This document shows positions 12,754-43,171 of a DNA stretch of 44,661 nucleotides, piece after piece (within the stretch, counting starts at the first letter, position 1; the number at the start of each line of letters is the position of its first letter). The translations under genes and the position numbers were made by a program. The stretch spans positions 1 to 44,661 of IMG/VR virus record IMGVR_UViG_3300032070_000010. The stretch is one strand, 5' to 3'. The stretch is from a virus (lineage: Duplodnaviria; Caudoviricetes). Under the pieces are notes generated by a model. It was given only the letters and a program-made list of their open reading frames with translations, was not told the origin of the DNA and did no database searches.

Positions 12754-12929
12754 CGCCCCAATAGATAAGCAATCTCGTATAGTTTATAGCATATGATTGC
12801 CAGTAGAGCAATCTTGAATAGTTCGCCTAAGTTCACCGTGATTTTCATCATGTTCACGCTATCCTCAATAACATCATAATTACACCCCTTTATATCCCCT
12901 CGCATAACGATTGTTAACTACATAGCAAT

Positions 12930-13997: not shown

Positions 13998-14240
13998 TTA
14001 AACACTATATACCCTTACTCTTACTCCGTATTTATTATTACTATCCGATGCGATATAGTAATTTAAACCTTCTTTATCGCATATCGTCACTATATCCCTT
14101 AATATGGGAGTAGTTAGTAATTCACTGGTTACTATTATTTCGTTTCCATCTGGGTCGATTTTAGTGTTAACTCCCAGGCTCAACCGTGTTATTTCATGTC
14201 TTAATTTTCTTAATACCCGTTTTTGTTGGTTAACTAACAT
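13998..14240 (-). CDS. Hypothetical early protein (80 aa)
   Basis: ATG at 14240 with a GGAGTG RBS and an upstream duplicated promoter. Confidence 0.75.
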   Translation of the reverse strand: MLVNQQKRVLRKLRHEITRLSLGVNTKIDPDGNEIIVTSELLTTPILRDIVTICDKEGLNYYIASDSNNKYGVRVRVYSV

Positions 14241-14302
14241 ATTTTTACACACTCCTTATTATATATTATATCGCTTCTTACTTATATGCTTATGGTGTAA
14301 TT
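14238..14302 (-). promoter_or_regulatory. Duplicated promoter-RBS-ATG module, copy 1
   Basis: AATTACACCATAAGCATATAAGTAAGAAGCGATATAAT...AAGGAGTGTGTAAAAATATG, nearly identical to 15580-15644. Confidence 0.75.
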
Positions 14303-14385
14303 CTTACACTTTGGTTAACTATCGGTGAACACTGGTTTTAAAGCGATTTAAAGCGTTATTCCCGTTTGGGCTACATTGCCCCGTT

Positions 14386-15127: not shown

Positions 15128-15582
15128 TCACTTATCCTTTTTACCCGATAAATTATTAATATAATCGTCAATTAAGAATAGTTTTTTTTCTTTATTATAC
15201 TTCTTATTTAATTCGTATATTTCTAAATAATCTTTTTTACTTAACTTCATATTTTCACTCCTTTTTATATCCACATAATTATTTCTATTTCATCGGGCAC
15301 TTTTTTATAGTTTTTCTTTTTGATTATGGTTAACTCCTGGTTTAACTTCATTTAATCACTCCTTACCAGTTAACTGGTGAATACGGTTAGTGACTATTAC
15401 CAGTTTTTCAATAAAGATAAAATCGTTTATCTGTGATTCGTCAATAACTCCAATAACTAACATTTTTATAGCCTCCCTGAATTTTCGAGTATTACTAATA
15501 GGTTAAAGAGTATATCGGTATTTTTTAAATTACCAGATTCGTATTTTTCGTTTGTTTCGTTTATTAAATCTTTAATTTTCAT
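15128..15582 (-). CDS. Run of four micro-ORFs: 15466-15582 (38 aa), 15356-15463 (35 aa), 15265-15351 (28 aa) and 15128-15250 (40 aa)
   Basis: Manual translation. Each has an ATG with GGAGTG or GGAGG upstream, and they tile the gap head to tail. Confidence 0.6.
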
Positions 15583-15644
15583 ATTTTTACACACTCCTTA
15601 TATTCTATTATATCGTTTCTACCTTATATACTTATGGTGTAATT
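15580..15644 (-). promoter_or_regulatory. Duplicated promoter-RBS-ATG module, copy 2
   Basis: AATTACACCATAAGTATATAAGGTAGAAACGATATAAT...AAGGAGTGTGTAAAAATATG. Confidence 0.75.
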
Positions 15645-16028
15645 TTAACATTTTGATAGTATTATCTCTTTATTTTCTAATAAATCGTATATTGAATATT
15701 GCCCGTAAAATTTACCAGTGTTAATAGATTTTTGTTTTTCTGATAAGATTAAAATTAACTCGATAATAAATAGTTCTTTATCTTTATCGTAATAGCCCCC
15801 GATATAATTATTAAACGGGAGTAACTTAAAATTTTCGTGATAGTAAATAACCTTATTTTGATATCTTTCAATTAAAGGTTTTTTTACTCCCATACAATAA
15901 CGCTTTTTATTACTAGGTTTTACTTTGTTTATTCTATTATACTTAAAGCATATTGTAAAACCTTTATAGTTATTATAAGCATATCTTTCAAGTCTATTAA
16001 TTATATTGTTTATCTCTGTTAACTCCAT
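15645..16028 (-). CDS. Early protein, possibly SAM-lyase-like fold
   Basis: GFT...IGGYYD...IEL...G..YGQYSIYDL pattern; GGAGTG RBS before the ATG at 16028. Confidence 0.45.
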   Translation of the reverse strand: MELTEINNIINRLERYAYNNYKGFTICFKYNRINKVKPSNKKRYCMGVKKPLIERYQNKVIYYHENFKLLPFNNYIGGYYDKDKELFIIELILILSEKQKSINTGKFYGQYSIYDLLENKEIILSKC

Positions 16029-16176: not shown

Positions 16177-16741
16177 TTTATCACATATCCTTTTTTCTTA
16201 TACTCTATTATATCGTTTCTAGTATTTATAATTTTTGAGATAGAATAACACTTTGATATAATATCACTATTCGACCCGTTTATTTTTATTTGATTTTAGC
16301 ATATTAATTAATACGGTCCATAAATCGATTTAAATTTTTAGCATATAGTAACACGTTTTAAAAAAGATAATCGATTTTGACATACTAGCACTTTGACATA
16401 ATTACACGAAATGTTTAAATAACAGAATGACTAAATACCATATAGTGATAATAATGAAGTGTAATAATTGGAGTAATATAATCAAAAAGGTAAAATACCA
16501 TAAACCATGTAGTTACAAATACGAATAATAGAGAAATGATAATATGTCAAAAGACTATAATATCAAAATGGTAGAACACCAAAACGGTGAACAACCGAAA
16601 CGGTCAATCGGCAACACACGGACAAACGGACAAACCGACAAAACGGACAAAATTGACGGACAAAAAAGATATATAAATATATATGAATCGGCAAAAGTAA
16701 TATAAAGGTGGACCGACAAATAGATAGGTAAGGTGAAAAAA
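16177..16741. promoter_or_regulatory. Divergent control region with operator-like and tandem repeats
   Basis: Coding strand switches here. TTTGAYATA x4, CGGACAAA-type tandem repeats, a rightward AAAAGTAATATAAAG box and an AGGTGA RBS. Confidence 0.65.
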
Positions 16742-19045: not shown

Positions 19046-19402
19046 ATGAGTGAAAGGATTGGTAAAAATAAACCACGAATAAGAACAAAAGAACAAAACA
19101 GACAACACAATAAAGAATGGAGACAGCGTGTAAAAATAGACGTAATATCACATTACGGACATGATGGAAAACCAACTTGTGTCAGTTGTGGATTTGATGA
19201 TATACGTGCATTATCCATTGACCACATATTTAATGATGGTAGTTCACAAAGAAAGTCAATGCCTGAAACAAAAGGTAGTTGTTTTTATCCATGGTTGCGA
19301 AAGCATAACTACCCAGTTGGCTATCAAACACTTTGCATGAATTGCCAATTTATTAAACGGTTTATGGTATTTGAACAACAAAATCAATATAAAGGGGTGT
19401 AA
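19046..19402 (+). CDS. HNH-type endonuclease
   Basis: CVSCG..DIRALSIDHIFNDG...YQTLCMNC. Confidence 0.8.
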   Translation: MSERIGKNKPRIRTKEQNRQHNKEWRQRVKIDVISHYGHDGKPTCVSCGFDDIRALSIDHIFNDGSSQRKSMPETKGSCFYPWLRKHNYPVGYQTLCMNCQFIKRFMVFEQQNQYKGV

Positions 19403-19404
19403 TT

Positions 19405-19764
19405 ATGATGTTATTGAAGGACAATATGAAAAAAGAACGAAATAGAATCGGATTATTGCAAATGCTCAGAGAACAGGAAATACGTGATTTAAAAAATGAA
19501 AATGTAAAACGTATTGCGTCTGATTCAATCACGACAGAAAATGATTATTCAGAAAACTTTAATAATGATTGTTGGACTGAAGTTGGCGTCTACACACAAA
19601 TTGATGTGTATAATAGAGACGATGGTAGACAAAACATATTTAACAACAAACGAATGGTATCTAATTTAAACAAAGAAACAGACAACGATTTCAATGAGAG
19701 ACAGTTCAACATACTTAAAATGTTGAAACAAAAAAGAAAACAGGAGGACAAAAAATATGAGTAA
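19405..19764 (+). CDS. Hypothetical protein
   Basis: 119-aa ORF. Confidence 0.7.
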   Translation: MMLLKDNMKKERNRIGLLQMLREQEIRDLKNENVKRIASDSITTENDYSENFNNDCWTEVGVYTQIDVYNRDDGRQNIFNNKRMVSNLNKETDNDFNERQFNILKMLKQKRKQEDKKYE

Positions 19765-25823: not shown

Positions 25824-26699
25824 ATGGAAACACCGATGGTAGAATTAAAAACATATGCAACCGATAATGTCCGATTCTTTGCAAAACTAGAGGGTGTGTC
25901 AATCGGTGGGTCAATTAAAGACCGAGTTGGTGATTGGCTAGTTCACCAGGCGGTGAAACATGGCTATTTAACGAAAGGTGACACCATTATTGAGGCAACA
26001 TCGGGAAATACTGGCATTGGATTGGCTATTGCTGCGGTAAAATACGGTTTTCCATGCAAACTATTAGTTCCAAAGTCAACTGCAAAAATGAAGATTAAGA
26101 TGATGAGAGCCTTCGGTGCTACCGTTGAAATCATCGATGGAACGATTGACGATTGCATTGGCTTAGTTGAGGGAATGGCTGCAAAATCAAATTACGTGTG
26201 GCTAAATCAATATGACAATGAGGAAAGTGTCGAATGTCATTATAGAACAACTGCGAGAGAAATTGAAGATTGGATGTGGAATTACATAAAACGCAATCAA
26301 TCGATATTTAATAATTCTAGTAAAAAGCAATTTATACTTGTCGCTGCAATGGGAACAACAGGAACTATAATGGGATGTTCAAAGTATCTAAGTCCTCAAG
26401 GATGGACAATCTACGGTGCAATGCCAGACCCAAAAAGCAAGATTGAGGGATTAAAAAACTTACATATTCAACGCAGACCGAAGATATTTGACCGCAGGGA
26501 AATAGACCAAGTGATTTGCGTGAACAGTGCAGAAACGAAACGTGCAATAAAAGACCTTGCACTGAGAGAGGGTATCCTAGCAGGTCCGAGTTCTGGTGCT
26601 GCGTTATGTGCTGCACTATTCGTTGCAAACTTACAGCCTAAAGATAAGAAAACAAATATCGTTGTAATATTCGCAGATAGGGGTGAACGCTATTTATAA
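25824..26699 (+). CDS. cysM: PLP-dependent cysteine synthase (CysM/CysK family)
   Basis: AKLE...GGSIKDR (PLP lysine), EATSGNTGIGLA, NQYDN, MGTTGTIMG, IEGL, GPSSGAA and DRGERYL. Confidence 0.9.
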   Translation: METPMVELKTYATDNVRFFAKLEGVSIGGSIKDRVGDWLVHQAVKHGYLTKGDTIIEATSGNTGIGLAIAAVKYGFPCKLLVPKSTAKMKIKMMRAFGATVEIIDGTIDDCIGLVEGMAAKSNYVWLNQYDNEESVECHYRTTAREIEDWMWNYIKRNQSIFNNSSKKQFILVAAMGTTGTIMGCSKYLSPQGWTIYGAMPDPKSKIEGLKNLHIQRRPKIFDRREIDQVICVNSAETKRAIKDLALREGILAGPSSGAALCAALFVANLQPKDKKTNIVVIFADRGERYL

Positions 26700-38089: not shown

Positions 38090-38397
38090 TGGTTATTCAC
38101 TTCTATTCCAGATTTTCCAGAATTGTAAACAGCAGCCCAAAGTTCAACGAAATCATCTGGGTGCATTGATTGTAAATCTTTTTCAGTTACCTTTAAATCA
38201 ATATCGTGTAATGACAACAGCATCATCTGTAATCGATATGTTTTATCATAATCAGATTGTTTCATTACTTTCAATCTTAGTTTTTCATCAAGTGGCAACA
38301 TCATTTCTAAAAGTAGTTCGTGTTTTGCCACAGTCCACTCTGGCATTGTGAAGGACTTTCCTTCATTTACAAATTTTAAACTATATTGTTTAGACAT
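38068..38397 (-). CDS. Tail assembly chaperone (gpG-like)
   Basis: Lies between the tail tube and tape measure genes and ends in a slippery sequence. Confidence 0.75.
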   Translation of the reverse strand: MSKQYSLKFVNEGKSFTMPEWTVAKHELLLEMMLPLDEKLRLKVMKQSDYDKTYRLQMMLLSLHDIDLKVTEKDLQSMHPDDFVELWAAVYNSGKSGIEVNNQDFQKGE

Positions 38398-38408
38398 GTT
38401 TTACCTCA

Positions 38409-38461
38409 GACCCCATGTTCGAGTTGAACGAACATCCAATGTGGTATCTTCCCTATGGGGT
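38409..38461 (-). ncRNA. Mini-tRNA-like element 1 (acceptor stem plus T-arm)
   Basis: ACCCCAT-21nt-GTTCG-TTCAACT-CGAAC-ATGGGGT-C: 7-bp and 5-bp stems with a canonical T-loop. Confidence 0.65.
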
Positions 38462-38469
38462 ATTAAATA

Positions 38470-38490
38470 ATAAAAAGGGGGGATTCCCCT
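38470..38490 (-). terminator. Hairpin plus U-tract after the tail tube gene
   Basis: TAA-GGGG-AAT-CCCC-CCTTTT. Confidence 0.55.
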
Positions 38491-39383
38491 TAGACTGTTG
38501 AGTATGAGAATGTTTTTCCAGTGAATGGTGCGTTCTCCTTCATTATATCACCAGAGATGTTTACATCTATTTCACTGTTTTTCCACTTGCAGTTTTCAAG
38601 TGTTATCTCAGGTGCACCTGCACCACCGAGAGCAACCACCAAATCGAACTCCGCTTGGTTGACAACATCGGATAGGTGTTTTCCACCACCTTCATTCAAA
38701 GATATGTCACAAGACCCAGAGATGTTTAATTCACCTGCGAATGCATATTGTTTTTCAAGTGAATCATGGTCGAAGTAATTCTTTGTTCCGTTGTCGATTG
38801 TGAAATCAATTGAATTGGTGATGTATGCCAAATCTCCACCGTTTGCTTGGATAGACCCCGCTACGTTGAATGCACATATGTCTCCACCTAATGCACCTGG
38901 TATTGAACCAGTTGGTGTTGAATCGGTAACTACACTTTTCACATCAAAGTCCATCACATACACATATTCATTGTTTATGCTAGATGAAATCTTACATGAT
39001 TTATTTACTGAACCTTTAATCCAGTATGCTGTTGCATCTGCACCAGTTGGACTTATACATGAATTTGTTGTTAGATAGAAAGCGATTGATGTTAAAGCAC
39101 AAGTTGCACCATCACGCACAACTGCATCATCAAAGAGTGTATCACCAACTTGTGGGATGTATTCCAAATGGAATGAGTAGTCATTGCATTGCTCGAGAAG
39201 ATAACATATCTCTGGTGCATCTATTCCACGTAGTCCTTTGTGTTTGTCTCCTAGCGTAACTTTTGCATCGAGAACCTTAATAGATATTGGTTTTCCCGCA
39301 TGTGTGGGAACTGAACCAACACCATATGAAGTTTCTACATAATAACGTATTTCACCCTGAAAGGGTAGTCCTAAATTCGCCAT
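38490..39383 (-). CDS. Major tail tube protein
   Basis: YYVETSYGV, SIDFTIDN, G.LNISGS.D; strong GGAGG RBS; located upstream of the chaperone and tape measure genes. Confidence 0.8.
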   Translation of the reverse strand: MANLGLPFQGEIRYYVETSYGVGSVPTHAGKPISIKVLDAKVTLGDKHKGLRGIDAPEICYLLEQCNDYSFHLEYIPQVGDTLFDDAVVRDGATCALTSIAFYLTTNSCISPTGADATAYWIKGSVNKSCKISSSINNEYVYVMDFDVKSVVTDSTPTGSIPGALGGDICAFNVAGSIQANGGDLAYITNSIDFTIDNGTKNYFDHDSLEKQYAFAGELNISGSCDISLNEGGGKHLSDVVNQAEFDLVVALGGAGAPEITLENCKWKNSEIDVNISGDIMKENAPFTGKTFSYSTV

Positions 39384-39901: not shown

Positions 39902-40255
39902 TTATTCTAATTTATCTTGATTTTCAAGATATTTTTTCCAATTACAATTTCTACATAATACTTGATAACCAATTGGATAATCAAGTTTATTTAAGTAGAA
40001 ATATATTCCCATTTTATTTGTTTCCTTTCTAGTTTTATTTCCATCGTTATCAATATGGTCTAAATCTAAACAATCAATATCATTAAATCCACATTTATTG
40101 CATATCATATGCCCATCAGAATATATAAATAATGCAATTTGTTTCATTTCCCATTTGTAATTTTTTTTTCGTTCTAATTCATGTTCTGTGTTATTTTCAT
40201 AGAAATTTCTATGCCATTGTCTACAATAATCTGAGATTTCTTTTTTTGTTCTCAC
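39902..40255 (-). CDS. HNH-type endonuclease (homologue of 19046-19402)
   Basis: CNKCG..DIDCLDLDHIDNDG...YQVLCRNCN. Confidence 0.8.
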   Translation of the reverse strand: MRTKKEISDYCRQWHRNFYENNTEHELERKKNYKWEMKQIALFIYSDGHMICNKCGFNDIDCLDLDHIDNDGNKTRKETNKMGIYFYLNKLDYPIGYQVLCRNCNWKKYLENQDKLE

Positions 40256-41690: not shown

Positions 41691-42337
41691 AAACTATCAC
41701 CATACTTCCAGTTGTAAATTGTTTGTGCTGCAAGAAATACTGGAAAATACTCTTGCATTATTTCATCATATGTTTTTGTAATAAACGTGTATTCGCCATC
41801 TCGTATTTGAAGTATTCCAACACCTTCAACTTTAATTCCAGTTTGCTCGTGGAATGCTTGAACATACGCAGCCATCTGTAACCAGTATTCATCGTATATC
41901 CCACGAGATGTTTTCCAATCTAATATGTAAACCTTTCCATCAAATAATCCAATGAAGTCGCAAGTTCCCGCATATCGATATTTATCACTCCAAAGATGTT
42001 GTTCAAGTGCTTGAGTATTTATCTTGTGCAACTCACGCCACTTGTTGAAAACCTTAATGCTATCCATTAGAAATGAATCGTAATTTTCTGATAGTTCTTC
42101 TCCCTTCAGTGTCACTTCTATTAGTTTGTGAACCGTTGAACCAAAACCTGAACGGGTCTTTAATATTTCTTTTGCTTTTGTTGCACCAGTTTTTGCATAC
42201 CAAGCACGGAGTTCTGGTTTGTCTATGATGCTGTTTATTCTCGTCACACGAGCATACTTAATTCCTCTTATCAAGTAATGATTGTCCGTGCATATGAACT
42301 CACTTGGAGTTTTAATATCCCAATTTTTTTCTTGCAT
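41687..42337 (-). CDS. PD-(D/E)xK exonuclease (Cas4/RecB-like)
   Basis: RVT.I..I.KP.L..W, GSTVH..IE, E..L, YAGTCD, LDWKTS and LQMAAY. ATG at 42337. Confidence 0.88.
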   Translation of the reverse strand: MQEKNWDIKTPSEFICTDNHYLIRGIKYARVTRINSIIDKPELRAWYAKTGATKAKEILKTRSGFGSTVHKLIEVTLKGEELSENYDSFLMDSIKVFNKWRELHKINTQALEQHLWSDKYRYAGTCDFIGLFDGKVYILDWKTSRGIYDEYWLQMAAYVQAFHEQTGIKVEGVGILQIRDGEYTFITKTYDEIMQEYFPVFLAAQTIYNWKYGDSL

Positions 42338-42339
42338 AT

Positions 42340-42381
42340 ATCTCTCCAAAGACTTGAACTTTGGTGTGTGCCACTAAAGAT
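42340..42381 (-). ncRNA. Mini-tRNA-like element 2
   Basis: ATCTTT-AGTGGCACACA-CCAAAG-TTCAAGT-CTTTGG-AGAGAT: 6+6 bp, a T-loop and a D-loop-like AGTGG. Confidence 0.55.
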
Positions 42382-42400
42382 TAAAGAAGGGATTTCTCCC

Positions 42401-43171
42401 CTATACGTTCTGATATTGTTCTTGGTATTCATCTTCATCGTCTATTACCGCAAGTTTACGGATTTTACCAGATGAATCAACTATGGTTATGTATCCAGTT
42501 ATTGTCTTTTCACCATCGGTTGAATATTCACCGAATTTAACTAATCCGTGATATGATGGGTTTAGATAAATATTCCTATCGTATGCTGTCGGTGATGACA
42601 TAGATGCCGCACTAATCACTGAATCCATTATTCCTGGCGTTGGTGTGCTAACCCCAAAACAGAAATAATATCCGTCACCTGGGTCTACATTTACCGATGC
42701 ATCGGATGTGAAAAACCTTATTTCGTTATCGGCGTTGTCATCAGTTGCTAAACACATTCCATTGCCTGATTGCATCCAAATGTAAGGTTCGTATGTTTCA
42801 TTGTTTGCCGCTATAGTGAGAATCATTTCTTTGAATTCTCCACCCGTCATTATTGATTCGCCATATCCGCTATCTGTTACATTAGAAACATCAAATGTGA
42901 ATGCCACATTTTCATAGCATTCATCCCAAATATAAAATGAGGTTTCTGCATCCATTGGACATTCGAAATTTCCAAATTCCATTAACATATACAGTAAGAA
43001 ATACATATCTAGGTAGAACCACATTTCCATGCTGATTCCGCCCTCATTGCAACACCAGAAGTTTGATGTGTTGTCGAAATTCCACCACTCACCAATGTCA
43101 ACTCTCATAAAGAATGGAACATATCCATCTGGGAAGTTCGGTGGTAGTTCGGGAAAGTCATCTCGTGCCAT
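42401..43171 (-). CDS. Putative minor capsid / head decoration protein
   Basis: Directly after the MCP gene, GGAGG RBS, acidic and aromatic, C-terminal GYITI.D..G..RKLAV. Confidence 0.5.
   Translation of the reverse strand: MARDDFPELPPNFPDGYVPFFMRVDIGEWWNFDNTSNFWCCNEGGISMEMWFYLDMYFLLYMLMEFGNFECPMDAETSFYIWDECYENVAFTFDVSNVTDSGYGESIMTGGEFKEMILTIAANNETYEPYIWMQSGNGMCLATDDNADNEIRFFTSDASVNVDPGDGYYFCFGVSTPTPGIMDSVISAASMSSPTAYDRNIYLNPSYHGLVKFGEYSTDGEKTITGYITIVDSSGKIRKLAVIDDEDEYQEQYQNV

Follow-up and report, generated by a model that had tools for sequence, protein, structure and literature searches.

Genes and RNA features at the tube-chaperone junction

The window, i.e., the whole stretch of 44,661 nucleotides analysed here, is a complete virus record with direct terminal repeats, in which genes for a terminase, a portal, an HK97-type capsid, a tail tube, a tape measure, a primase and an Hjc-like resolvase can be read. 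On its minus strand, the tail tube gene is followed by a terminator-like hairpin, a short element resembling the top half of a tRNA, and the gene of a putative tail assembly chaperone. This tube-chaperone junction is referred to as site B and the junction behind the capsid gene as site A, and the features of both are collected in Table 1.

Table 1. Features of the two tRNA-like elements and their surroundings in the window
Feature	Positions	Strand	Remarks
Tail tube gene, 297 aa	38490..39383	-	Pfam Phage_tube_2, E 2e-4, below cut-off
Terminator-like hairpin (38491-38475) with U-rich tract	38462..38491	-	directly 3' of the tube stop codon, before +1
Site B element, tRNA top half, 52 nt plus discriminator C (38409)	38409..38461	-	same type in L048, L057, L070
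Acceptor-like stem, 38461-38455 with 38416-38410	38410..38461	-	7 Watson-Crick pairs; ensemble probability 0.92 in context
T arm, 5-bp stem 38433-38429 / 38421-38417	38417..38433	-	7-nt loop TTCAACT, 38428-38422
Linker, 21 nt	38434..38454	-	D-loop-like GG run (38453-38451); 3-bp vestigial hairpin (38444-38436)
Shine-Dalgarno GAGGT of the chaperone gene	38403..38407	-	begins 2 nt past the discriminator
Tail assembly chaperone G, 109 aa	38068..38397	-	ATG at 38397; by position and slip site, no family match
Terminator-like hairpin before the site A element	42387..42402	-	
Site A element, 42 nt, discriminator A (42339)	42339..42381	-	12-bp stack, 11-nt linker with GG, T loop; in R1 training set
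PD-(D/E)XK exonuclease gene, 216 aa	41687..42337	-	start codon at 42337, one base after the discriminator

The original prediction described a 53-nt element at site B with a 7-bp acceptor stem, a 5-bp T stem, a T loop and no CCA, lying behind a hairpin and ahead of a GAGGT motif. Its sequence and coordinates are exact, both flanking signals are present, and the element possesses no anticodon arm. The small hairpin in its linker is also predicted in the copies of the same type in the related loci L048, L057 and L070. The neighbouring genes had been named as tail tube and chaperone, and these assignments hold by a Pfam match below the cut-off for the former and by position together with a slip site for the latter. 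This probable -1 slip site, GGATTTTC (38089-38082, minus strand), lies near the end of the chaperone gene; the -1 frame (38029-37835, minus strand) stays open to 37835, which gives a G/GT pair, and the tape measure gene comes next. GGATTTTC is kept in 16 of 16 complete chaperone copies, three truncated copies having been left out. Elsewhere in the tail module, an HNH endonuclease-like gene (39902-40255, minus strand) is inserted.

When the RNA fold proposed for site B was computed in context with ViennaRNA, the acceptor stem was recovered firmly, while the T stem reached a probability of only 0.31 in a model that does not include tertiary contacts. Competing folds win in several relatives, and the folding energy is unremarkable against shuffled sequences (z of -1.5). 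In 200 simulated genomes (order-3 Markov), no full element occurred, and the T arm alone appeared 0.075 times per genome. Neither ARAGORN nor Rfam called the element in the window, where the tRNA cloverleaf RF00005 with its anticodon arm is absent.

A second element and the start-codon register

The same scan found a second mini-tRNA in the window, at site A, which the original prediction did not contain. Model R1, built on the 42-nt class, detected no third element in the window, and on the site B element it recognised the T arm only (E of 2.7).

At site A, an ATG lies 1-2 nt past the discriminator in 17 of the 20 elements counted, compared with 2% at random positions. This flush register spans the exonuclease gene as well as an unrelated small gene, and mini as well as full tRNA forms. 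Eight of the 17 flush genes have no Shine-Dalgarno (SD) 4-mer, and in nine an SD-like word lies within the paired 3' strand. Seven more tRNA-like elements at the capsid junction, outside the count of 20 (L028, L037, L071, L108, L109, L117 and L128), are followed by SD-led genes, so that the overall flush figure becomes 17 of 27. Judged from the sequence, a tRNase Z cut at a flush site A would leave a leaderless mRNA. Site B has trailers of 11-14 nt, and an SD-like word is present there in 16 of 19 loci; since the chaperone gene is flush with the element in only one of the 19 (L009), the site B element has no start-codon argument in its favour.

An internal promoter was also considered and rejected, because no TATA-like word was seen by eye at promoter distance from the site B +1, and such a word precedes only 2 of the 17 flush genes, leaving 15 start codons without one. 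Relatives that carry no element at site A (L019, L025, L027, L031 and L112, with L021 and L030 judged by eye) often have a TATA-like word after the capsid gene, approximately 33 nt before a start codon that lacks an SD. The gene concerned is mostly the small gene that follows tRNA-Thr in L026, L032 and L033. Promoter and tRNA cut may thus be alternative routes to one leaderless mRNA. In L050 (4460-4490) and L058 (2226-2256), a 7-codon frame begins 2 nt past the site B discriminator and its stop overlaps the chaperone start codon, a possible case of translational coupling.

Conservation and covariation in relatives

Homologues of the tube gave 130 loci with 96 distinct junctions, L045 being the window's own contig. 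A hairpin with U tract was seen by eye in nearly all 96. Subsequently, a fixed-geometry detector was applied by position at the tube-chaperone junction. The element is present in 19 of 19 distinct loci with a tube identity of at least 55%, the window included, compared with 3 of 18 loci at 46-55% identity and 4 of 56 below that, against a detector background of 89 in 20000 windows (0.45%). In the distant groups this detector is imperfect: in L098 and L117 it responds to hairpins whose loops resemble a T loop, and the elements of L027, L066 and L113, all of which were seen by eye, escape it. That it fires in only 7 of the 74 loci under 55% identity indicates that tails are also built without the element. 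In L098 (894), L116 and L117 (4168), the terminator-like hairpin after the tube gene itself has a T-loop-like loop, and many hairpins of this virus family have loops rich in TTCA.

Compensatory changes had been proposed as the test of the element in the tube-chaperone junctions of relatives, and such changes are there. In a MAFFT alignment of 18 elements of the commonest, 42-nt class, 95.3% of 214 cells are paired, compared with 66% in shuffled and 41-65% in slid alignments. Double-sided changes occur in all 12 pairs, 59 cells in total, with the T loop kept, and RNAalifold unaided returned the same 12 pairs. The 18 elements were chosen after a pairing scan, which favours this result, whereas the positional count above is free of that bias.

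A wider set of 36 curated anticodon-less elements was then compared, five of 41 having been dropped (two from a third junction and those of L056, L113 and L128). All 36 have C56 and A58, in part as a consequence of the search pattern. The linkers of 10-29 nt contain GG in 35 of 36 cases, where 34-56% would be expected. The discriminator is free (T in 17, A in 14 and C in 5 elements), and none of the 36 carries CCA; a free discriminator fits tRNase Z and not a synthetase. A G1-C72 pair is found in only six, and most elements begin with U or A, which is unlike most tRNAs. An aminoacylated tRNA mimic, such as the tmRNA domain or a viral tRNA-like structure, was rejected on the grounds that there is neither a fixed discriminator or acceptor identity, for which G3-U70 would be an example, nor a CCA. 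Combined, covariation, T loop and D-loop-like GG bear out selection for the tRNA mimicry originally claimed, and the site B element is real, selected and tRNA-derived.

There are only two copies per genome: in four near relatives that are 95-100% complete, R1 gives exactly two matches each, at sites A and B, most of them being training sequences. Among 38 viral loci matching a sequence pattern, R1 yielded one weak, non-canonical match, and a pattern for the window's own type found none in the viral contigs searched. Third-junction elements, mini or full tRNA-like, follow an HK97-gp10-like gene in L010 (3468), L011 (3746) and L089 (2742); these are more distant relatives, and the window has no element there.

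Exchange of types and origin from tRNA genes

Within the near clade, site B is occupied by three types, measuring 52 nt (as in the window), 51 nt and 42 nt. The types are mixed among viruses with 87-89% identical tubes, the sister loci L048 and L049 carry different types, and in L070 two types stand in tandem, 2 nt apart. In distant relatives, the same junctions hold full tRNA-Ala, tRNA-Thr or tRNA-His genes, forms with D and T arms only, or nothing. Full tRNA genes lie at the site B junction in L011, L063, L071 and L110; in these, and in L033 and L117, Rfam RF00005 scores above its cut-off.

D and T arms without an anticodon arm are found at site B in L027 and L066. In a quick tree, on which these kinships rest, L027 is the sister of L110 (support of 97) and L066 groups with L063 and L011 (support of 100), from which it follows that the anticodon arm of a tRNA-Ala was lost twice. 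In L012, the site A element retains the acceptor stem and T arm of the tRNA-Thr found in L011 and L033, but only 13 nt are left of the part in between. For the two elements of the window, no parent tRNA can be named.

Virus and probable host

The window capsid had no match among the annotated phages searched, and its terminase shares less than 30% identity with annotated phages among the matches listed. The Hjc match, early-region repeats of TATA-like character and ribosome-binding sites of the GGTG/GAGG kind, as judged by eye, point to an archaeal host. The tube relatives lie in genomes filed under five phyla plus one further name, a spread over phyla that suggests misbinning. The viral tRNA-Ala of L110 matches the tRNA-Ala of the order of G001, a Thermoplasmatales genome, with E of 1e-7 or better in 62 of the 118 genomes of this candidate host order, compared with 0 of 81 in the Asgard phylum and 0 of 81 in Chloroflexota, which served as comparison groups. 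Thermoplasmatota are therefore the likely host phylum, and the virus probably infects sediment archaea. RNase P RNA and RNase Z, both above the cut-off, are encoded in five of five genomes probed from the candidate host order.

A comparison of 20 kb of the window with 401 Thermoplasmatota genomes for CRISPR spacers or shared genes gave short matches only, and the one inspected is coding DNA. Searches with cysteine synthase, capsid and terminase named no host. In the 118 host-order genomes, R1 returned five weak matches, four of which were judged to be noise. The fifth is an intergenic acceptor/T-arm-like fold on a Thermoplasmatota chromosome (L163; G065:C1:32863-32908, minus strand), possibly a tRNA remnant or a host t-element.

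The window itself contains further features outside the two junctions. A cysteine synthase-like PALP gene (25824-26699, plus strand), a possible auxiliary metabolic gene, is kept in many relatives. Three copies of an AT-rich repeat of 62-84 nt (14230-14316, 15572-15658 and 16197-16258) precede early genes on the minus strand and contain TATA-like words; they are probably repeated early promoters. A perfect 31-nt inverted repeat (12865-12895 and 19387-19417, 6.5 kb apart) flanks the early region and covers a start codon on each strand, which could reflect an invertible segment or a shared promoter or ribosome-binding site.

Proposed cleavage of the late transcript

Different versions of the element, up to complete tRNA genes, occupy the same two spots, and these spots therefore most likely mark sites cut by tRNA enzymes. 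We propose, with a probability of about 0.65 and on comparative sequence grounds, that the elements are tRNA-derived t-elements that punctuate the late transcript through host enzymes. Cutting by RNase P and tRNase Z would be the best explanation, to which the site A start codons at the predicted tRNase Z cut lend additional support.

In this model, captured host tRNA genes parked behind late terminators would be the source of the modules. The anticodon arm would have been lost more than once, the lost parts being those read by the ribosome and the synthetases, with retention of the top half that is read by tRNA-processing enzymes. Presumed transcriptional read-through of the hairpin and U tract behind a virion gene with strong expression would produce an RNA with a 12-bp acceptor/T stack, in which the GG of the linker may dock on the T loop. 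Host RNase P would then cut before +1 (38462/38461 at site B and 42382/42381 at site A), and tRNase Z after the discriminator (38409/38408 and 42339/42338, respectively). The upstream mRNA would be left with a protective hairpin at its end, the chaperone mRNA would gain a new 5' end with an 11-nt leader that is just the Shine-Dalgarno, and the exonuclease mRNA would be leaderless, with a 1-nt leader. Expression would presumably be affected by the cuts. The predicted unpaired probability of the SD rises from 0.41 to 0.65-0.69 on cutting. Sequence-specific masking of the SD by the leader was rejected, since shuffled leaders mask it as well (0.33).

A substrate of archaeal RNase Z may lack the D or anticodon arm, and the cut falls behind the discriminator; the enzyme needs the acceptor stem, methanogen enzymes required a mature 5' end first, and a C after the discriminator hampers other RNase Z enzymes (available text of PMC7479834). 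Haloferax cells cut t-elements from artificial transcripts with both enzymes (available text of PMC4326828 and PMC4946936). The scarcity of G1-C72, the need of RNase Z for a mature 5' end and a C after the discriminator in 7 of the 36 elements count against cutting.

The original prediction also suggested that the element may set the stoichiometry of tube versus chaperone. It does lie at the junction concerned; however, most of the distant relatives show nothing but a hairpin and U tract there, so that the element is dispensable at this junction and the hairpin with its tract, not the element, would be the general tube/chaperone step-down.

Alternatively, the fold could remain uncut and act as a structural block in the read-through transcript, either protecting the capsid or tube mRNA ahead of it against decay from the 3' end or keeping the downstream start site closed up to its opening by a ribosome or protein. 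We regard this as unlikely. The elements' constant position immediately after hairpin and U tract, at the ends of highly expressed genes, is compatible with such a block, as are the poor +1 bases for RNase P and the SD-like words in the paired 3' strand of nine of the 17 flush genes. However, a block needs neither a fixed 12-bp length nor a T loop nor GG, the full tRNA genes found at these positions have to be cut, and the 1-2 nt register holds even where no SD exists.

It is similarly doubtful that the released mini-tRNA, which the original prediction considered as a decoy, is itself the useful product, an abundant late RNA occupying host factors. RNase P, tRNase Z, the CCA-adding enzyme, T-arm modifying enzymes or an antiviral tRNA-binding protein are conceivable, if improbable, targets. 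Both cuts would release such an RNA, its genes are placed behind the strongest late genes, and types are swapped among close kin; the best point in its favour is the tandem of two different elements in L070, which is superfluous for one cut site. On the other hand, no discriminator or acceptor identity is conserved for aminoacylation, there are only two copies per genome, and the site A start-codon register is explained by a cut in cis. Nor is there an anticodon loop, a target of tRNA nucleases, with which to bait them. A tentative combination, to which we give little weight, would have exchangeable anticodon-less modules both provide ready-to-translate, partly leaderless late mRNAs via tRNase Z and, excised in amounts matching capsid and tube expression, sequester the tRNA-maturation enzymes of the host or a defence that senses tRNA in the late phase of infection.

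Decaying tRNA pseudogenes without present function are very improbable and largely refuted by the covariation. The elements do derive from tRNA genes, are missing in most distant relatives and include ragged copies (L059, L113 and L128); against this stand the 95% pairing with 59 double-sided changes, the fixed 42-nt geometry and retention in all 19 near loci, between which the tube proteins diverge by as much as 45%.

An attP remnant, with the 3' half of a host tRNA as the integration site, is hardly credible, even though tRNA-like genes of archaeal viruses can be attP sites (HF2; available text of PMC8707807): tyrosine integrase (PF00589) occurs in 0 of 5 complete genomes (control 14 of 14), no Pfam match of 55 ORFs is a serine recombinase, the sequence is wholly different among viruses with 87-89% identical tubes, the 5' acceptor strand covaries with the 3' half, there are two sites inside the morphogenesis operon, and the match to a host tRNA 3' half by which the original prediction would have recognised an att site was found for the 24-nt 3' half in 0 of 118 incomplete candidate-host-order genomes within three mismatches, which together with the missing integrase argues that this is not an att site.

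Comparison with known systems

The viral elements share the marks of t-elements: an acceptor and T arm with a conserved T loop, a missing anticodon arm or canonical D arm with a degenerate D region retained, and an intergenic, sense-strand position after a hairpin and before an SD or ATG, where they are presumably co-transcribed. In animal mitochondria, tRNA excision reportedly releases mRNAs whose 5' ends lie at the start codon or beside it (Ojala, Montoya and Attardi, 1981). Those tRNAs decode, whereas most punctuation marks of this virus family cannot.

The t-elements of plant mitochondria are likewise acceptor/T-arm mimics with a conserved T loop and without an anticodon arm or canonical D arm (available text of PMC1920247 and PMC5499578); they sit at gene boundaries and are read as cis-signals for RNase Z and RNase P (available text of PMC1920247). 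Here, in contrast, a prokaryotic virus would borrow the enzymes of its host, the case is made from sequence and not from mapped ends, the modules are interchangeable, and a living series leads from a full tRNA gene to the 42-nt form at one junction.

Among eukaryotic RNAs, mascRNA, a tRNA mimic without an anticodon, is excised from a long transcript. The murine herpesvirus MHV68 uses host tRNase Z on its tRNA-like TMERs (available text of PMC7773990). Both systems are eukaryotic, and their products are microRNAs or the end of a long non-coding RNA, not protein-coding late mRNAs.

Upstream of the 5S rRNA of Haloferax volcanii, a t-element is cut by tRNase Z and RNase P, forming the end of the neighbouring RNA (available text of PMC4326828, PMC4946936 and PMC7714728), and it works in vivo on artificial constructs (available text of PMC4326828). 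This element is chromosomal and lies beside rRNA, whereas the viral elements lie between protein genes; the two are likened by description, not base by base. Work on Haloferax tRNA-like elements by Hoelzle (2012) may cover mRNA-linked cases. The phage RNAs phi80 M3, P4 CI and P1/P7 C4 are substrates of RNase P, a host tRNA-maturation enzyme (available text of PMC5499578 and PMC11143913). They are regulatory RNAs without an equivalent of the T loop (available text of PMC5499578), whereas the elements described here keep it and lie at mRNA junctions.

In the literature searched, which included few subscription papers, we found t-elements without an anticodon described for no prokaryotic virus in a position between protein genes, and the class appeared only in mitochondria, Haloferax and a herpesvirus. 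To these, the present virus family adds a graded series, repeated loss of the anticodon arm and module exchange at fixed junctions. If the proposed cleavage is correct, it would amount to mitochondrion-style tRNA punctuation in an archaeal virus and would offer, besides codon supply and anti-defence, another reason why viral late operons contain tRNA genes. It would also reveal how t-elements originate, with one and the same junction still harbouring the full tRNA, the D+T form and the 42-nt form. Elements of 42 nt would be natural minimal substrates, refined by selection, for defining the needs of archaeal RNase P and tRNase Z, and could serve as small parts for splitting transcripts in Haloferax. 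Since ARAGORN and Rfam miss these elements, the class may be common and unannotated.

Larger RNAs behind the capsid gene

Some relatives carry other tRNA-related RNAs after the capsid gene. In L117 (226-297), this is a full tRNA-His(GTG) with an encoded G at -1 facing C73. Larger RNAs in L108 (418-620), L109 (1343-1540), L028 (6850-6975) and L037 (6318-6430) gave no Rfam match at the gathering score; they have tRNA-like ends, with an acceptor-like helix and a T arm, around conserved inner hairpins. This layout recalls tmRNA, which to our knowledge is not expected in an archaeal virus. The RNAs of L108 and L109 enclose a basic, Cys-containing frame of 29-30 codons, which is shortened in L028.
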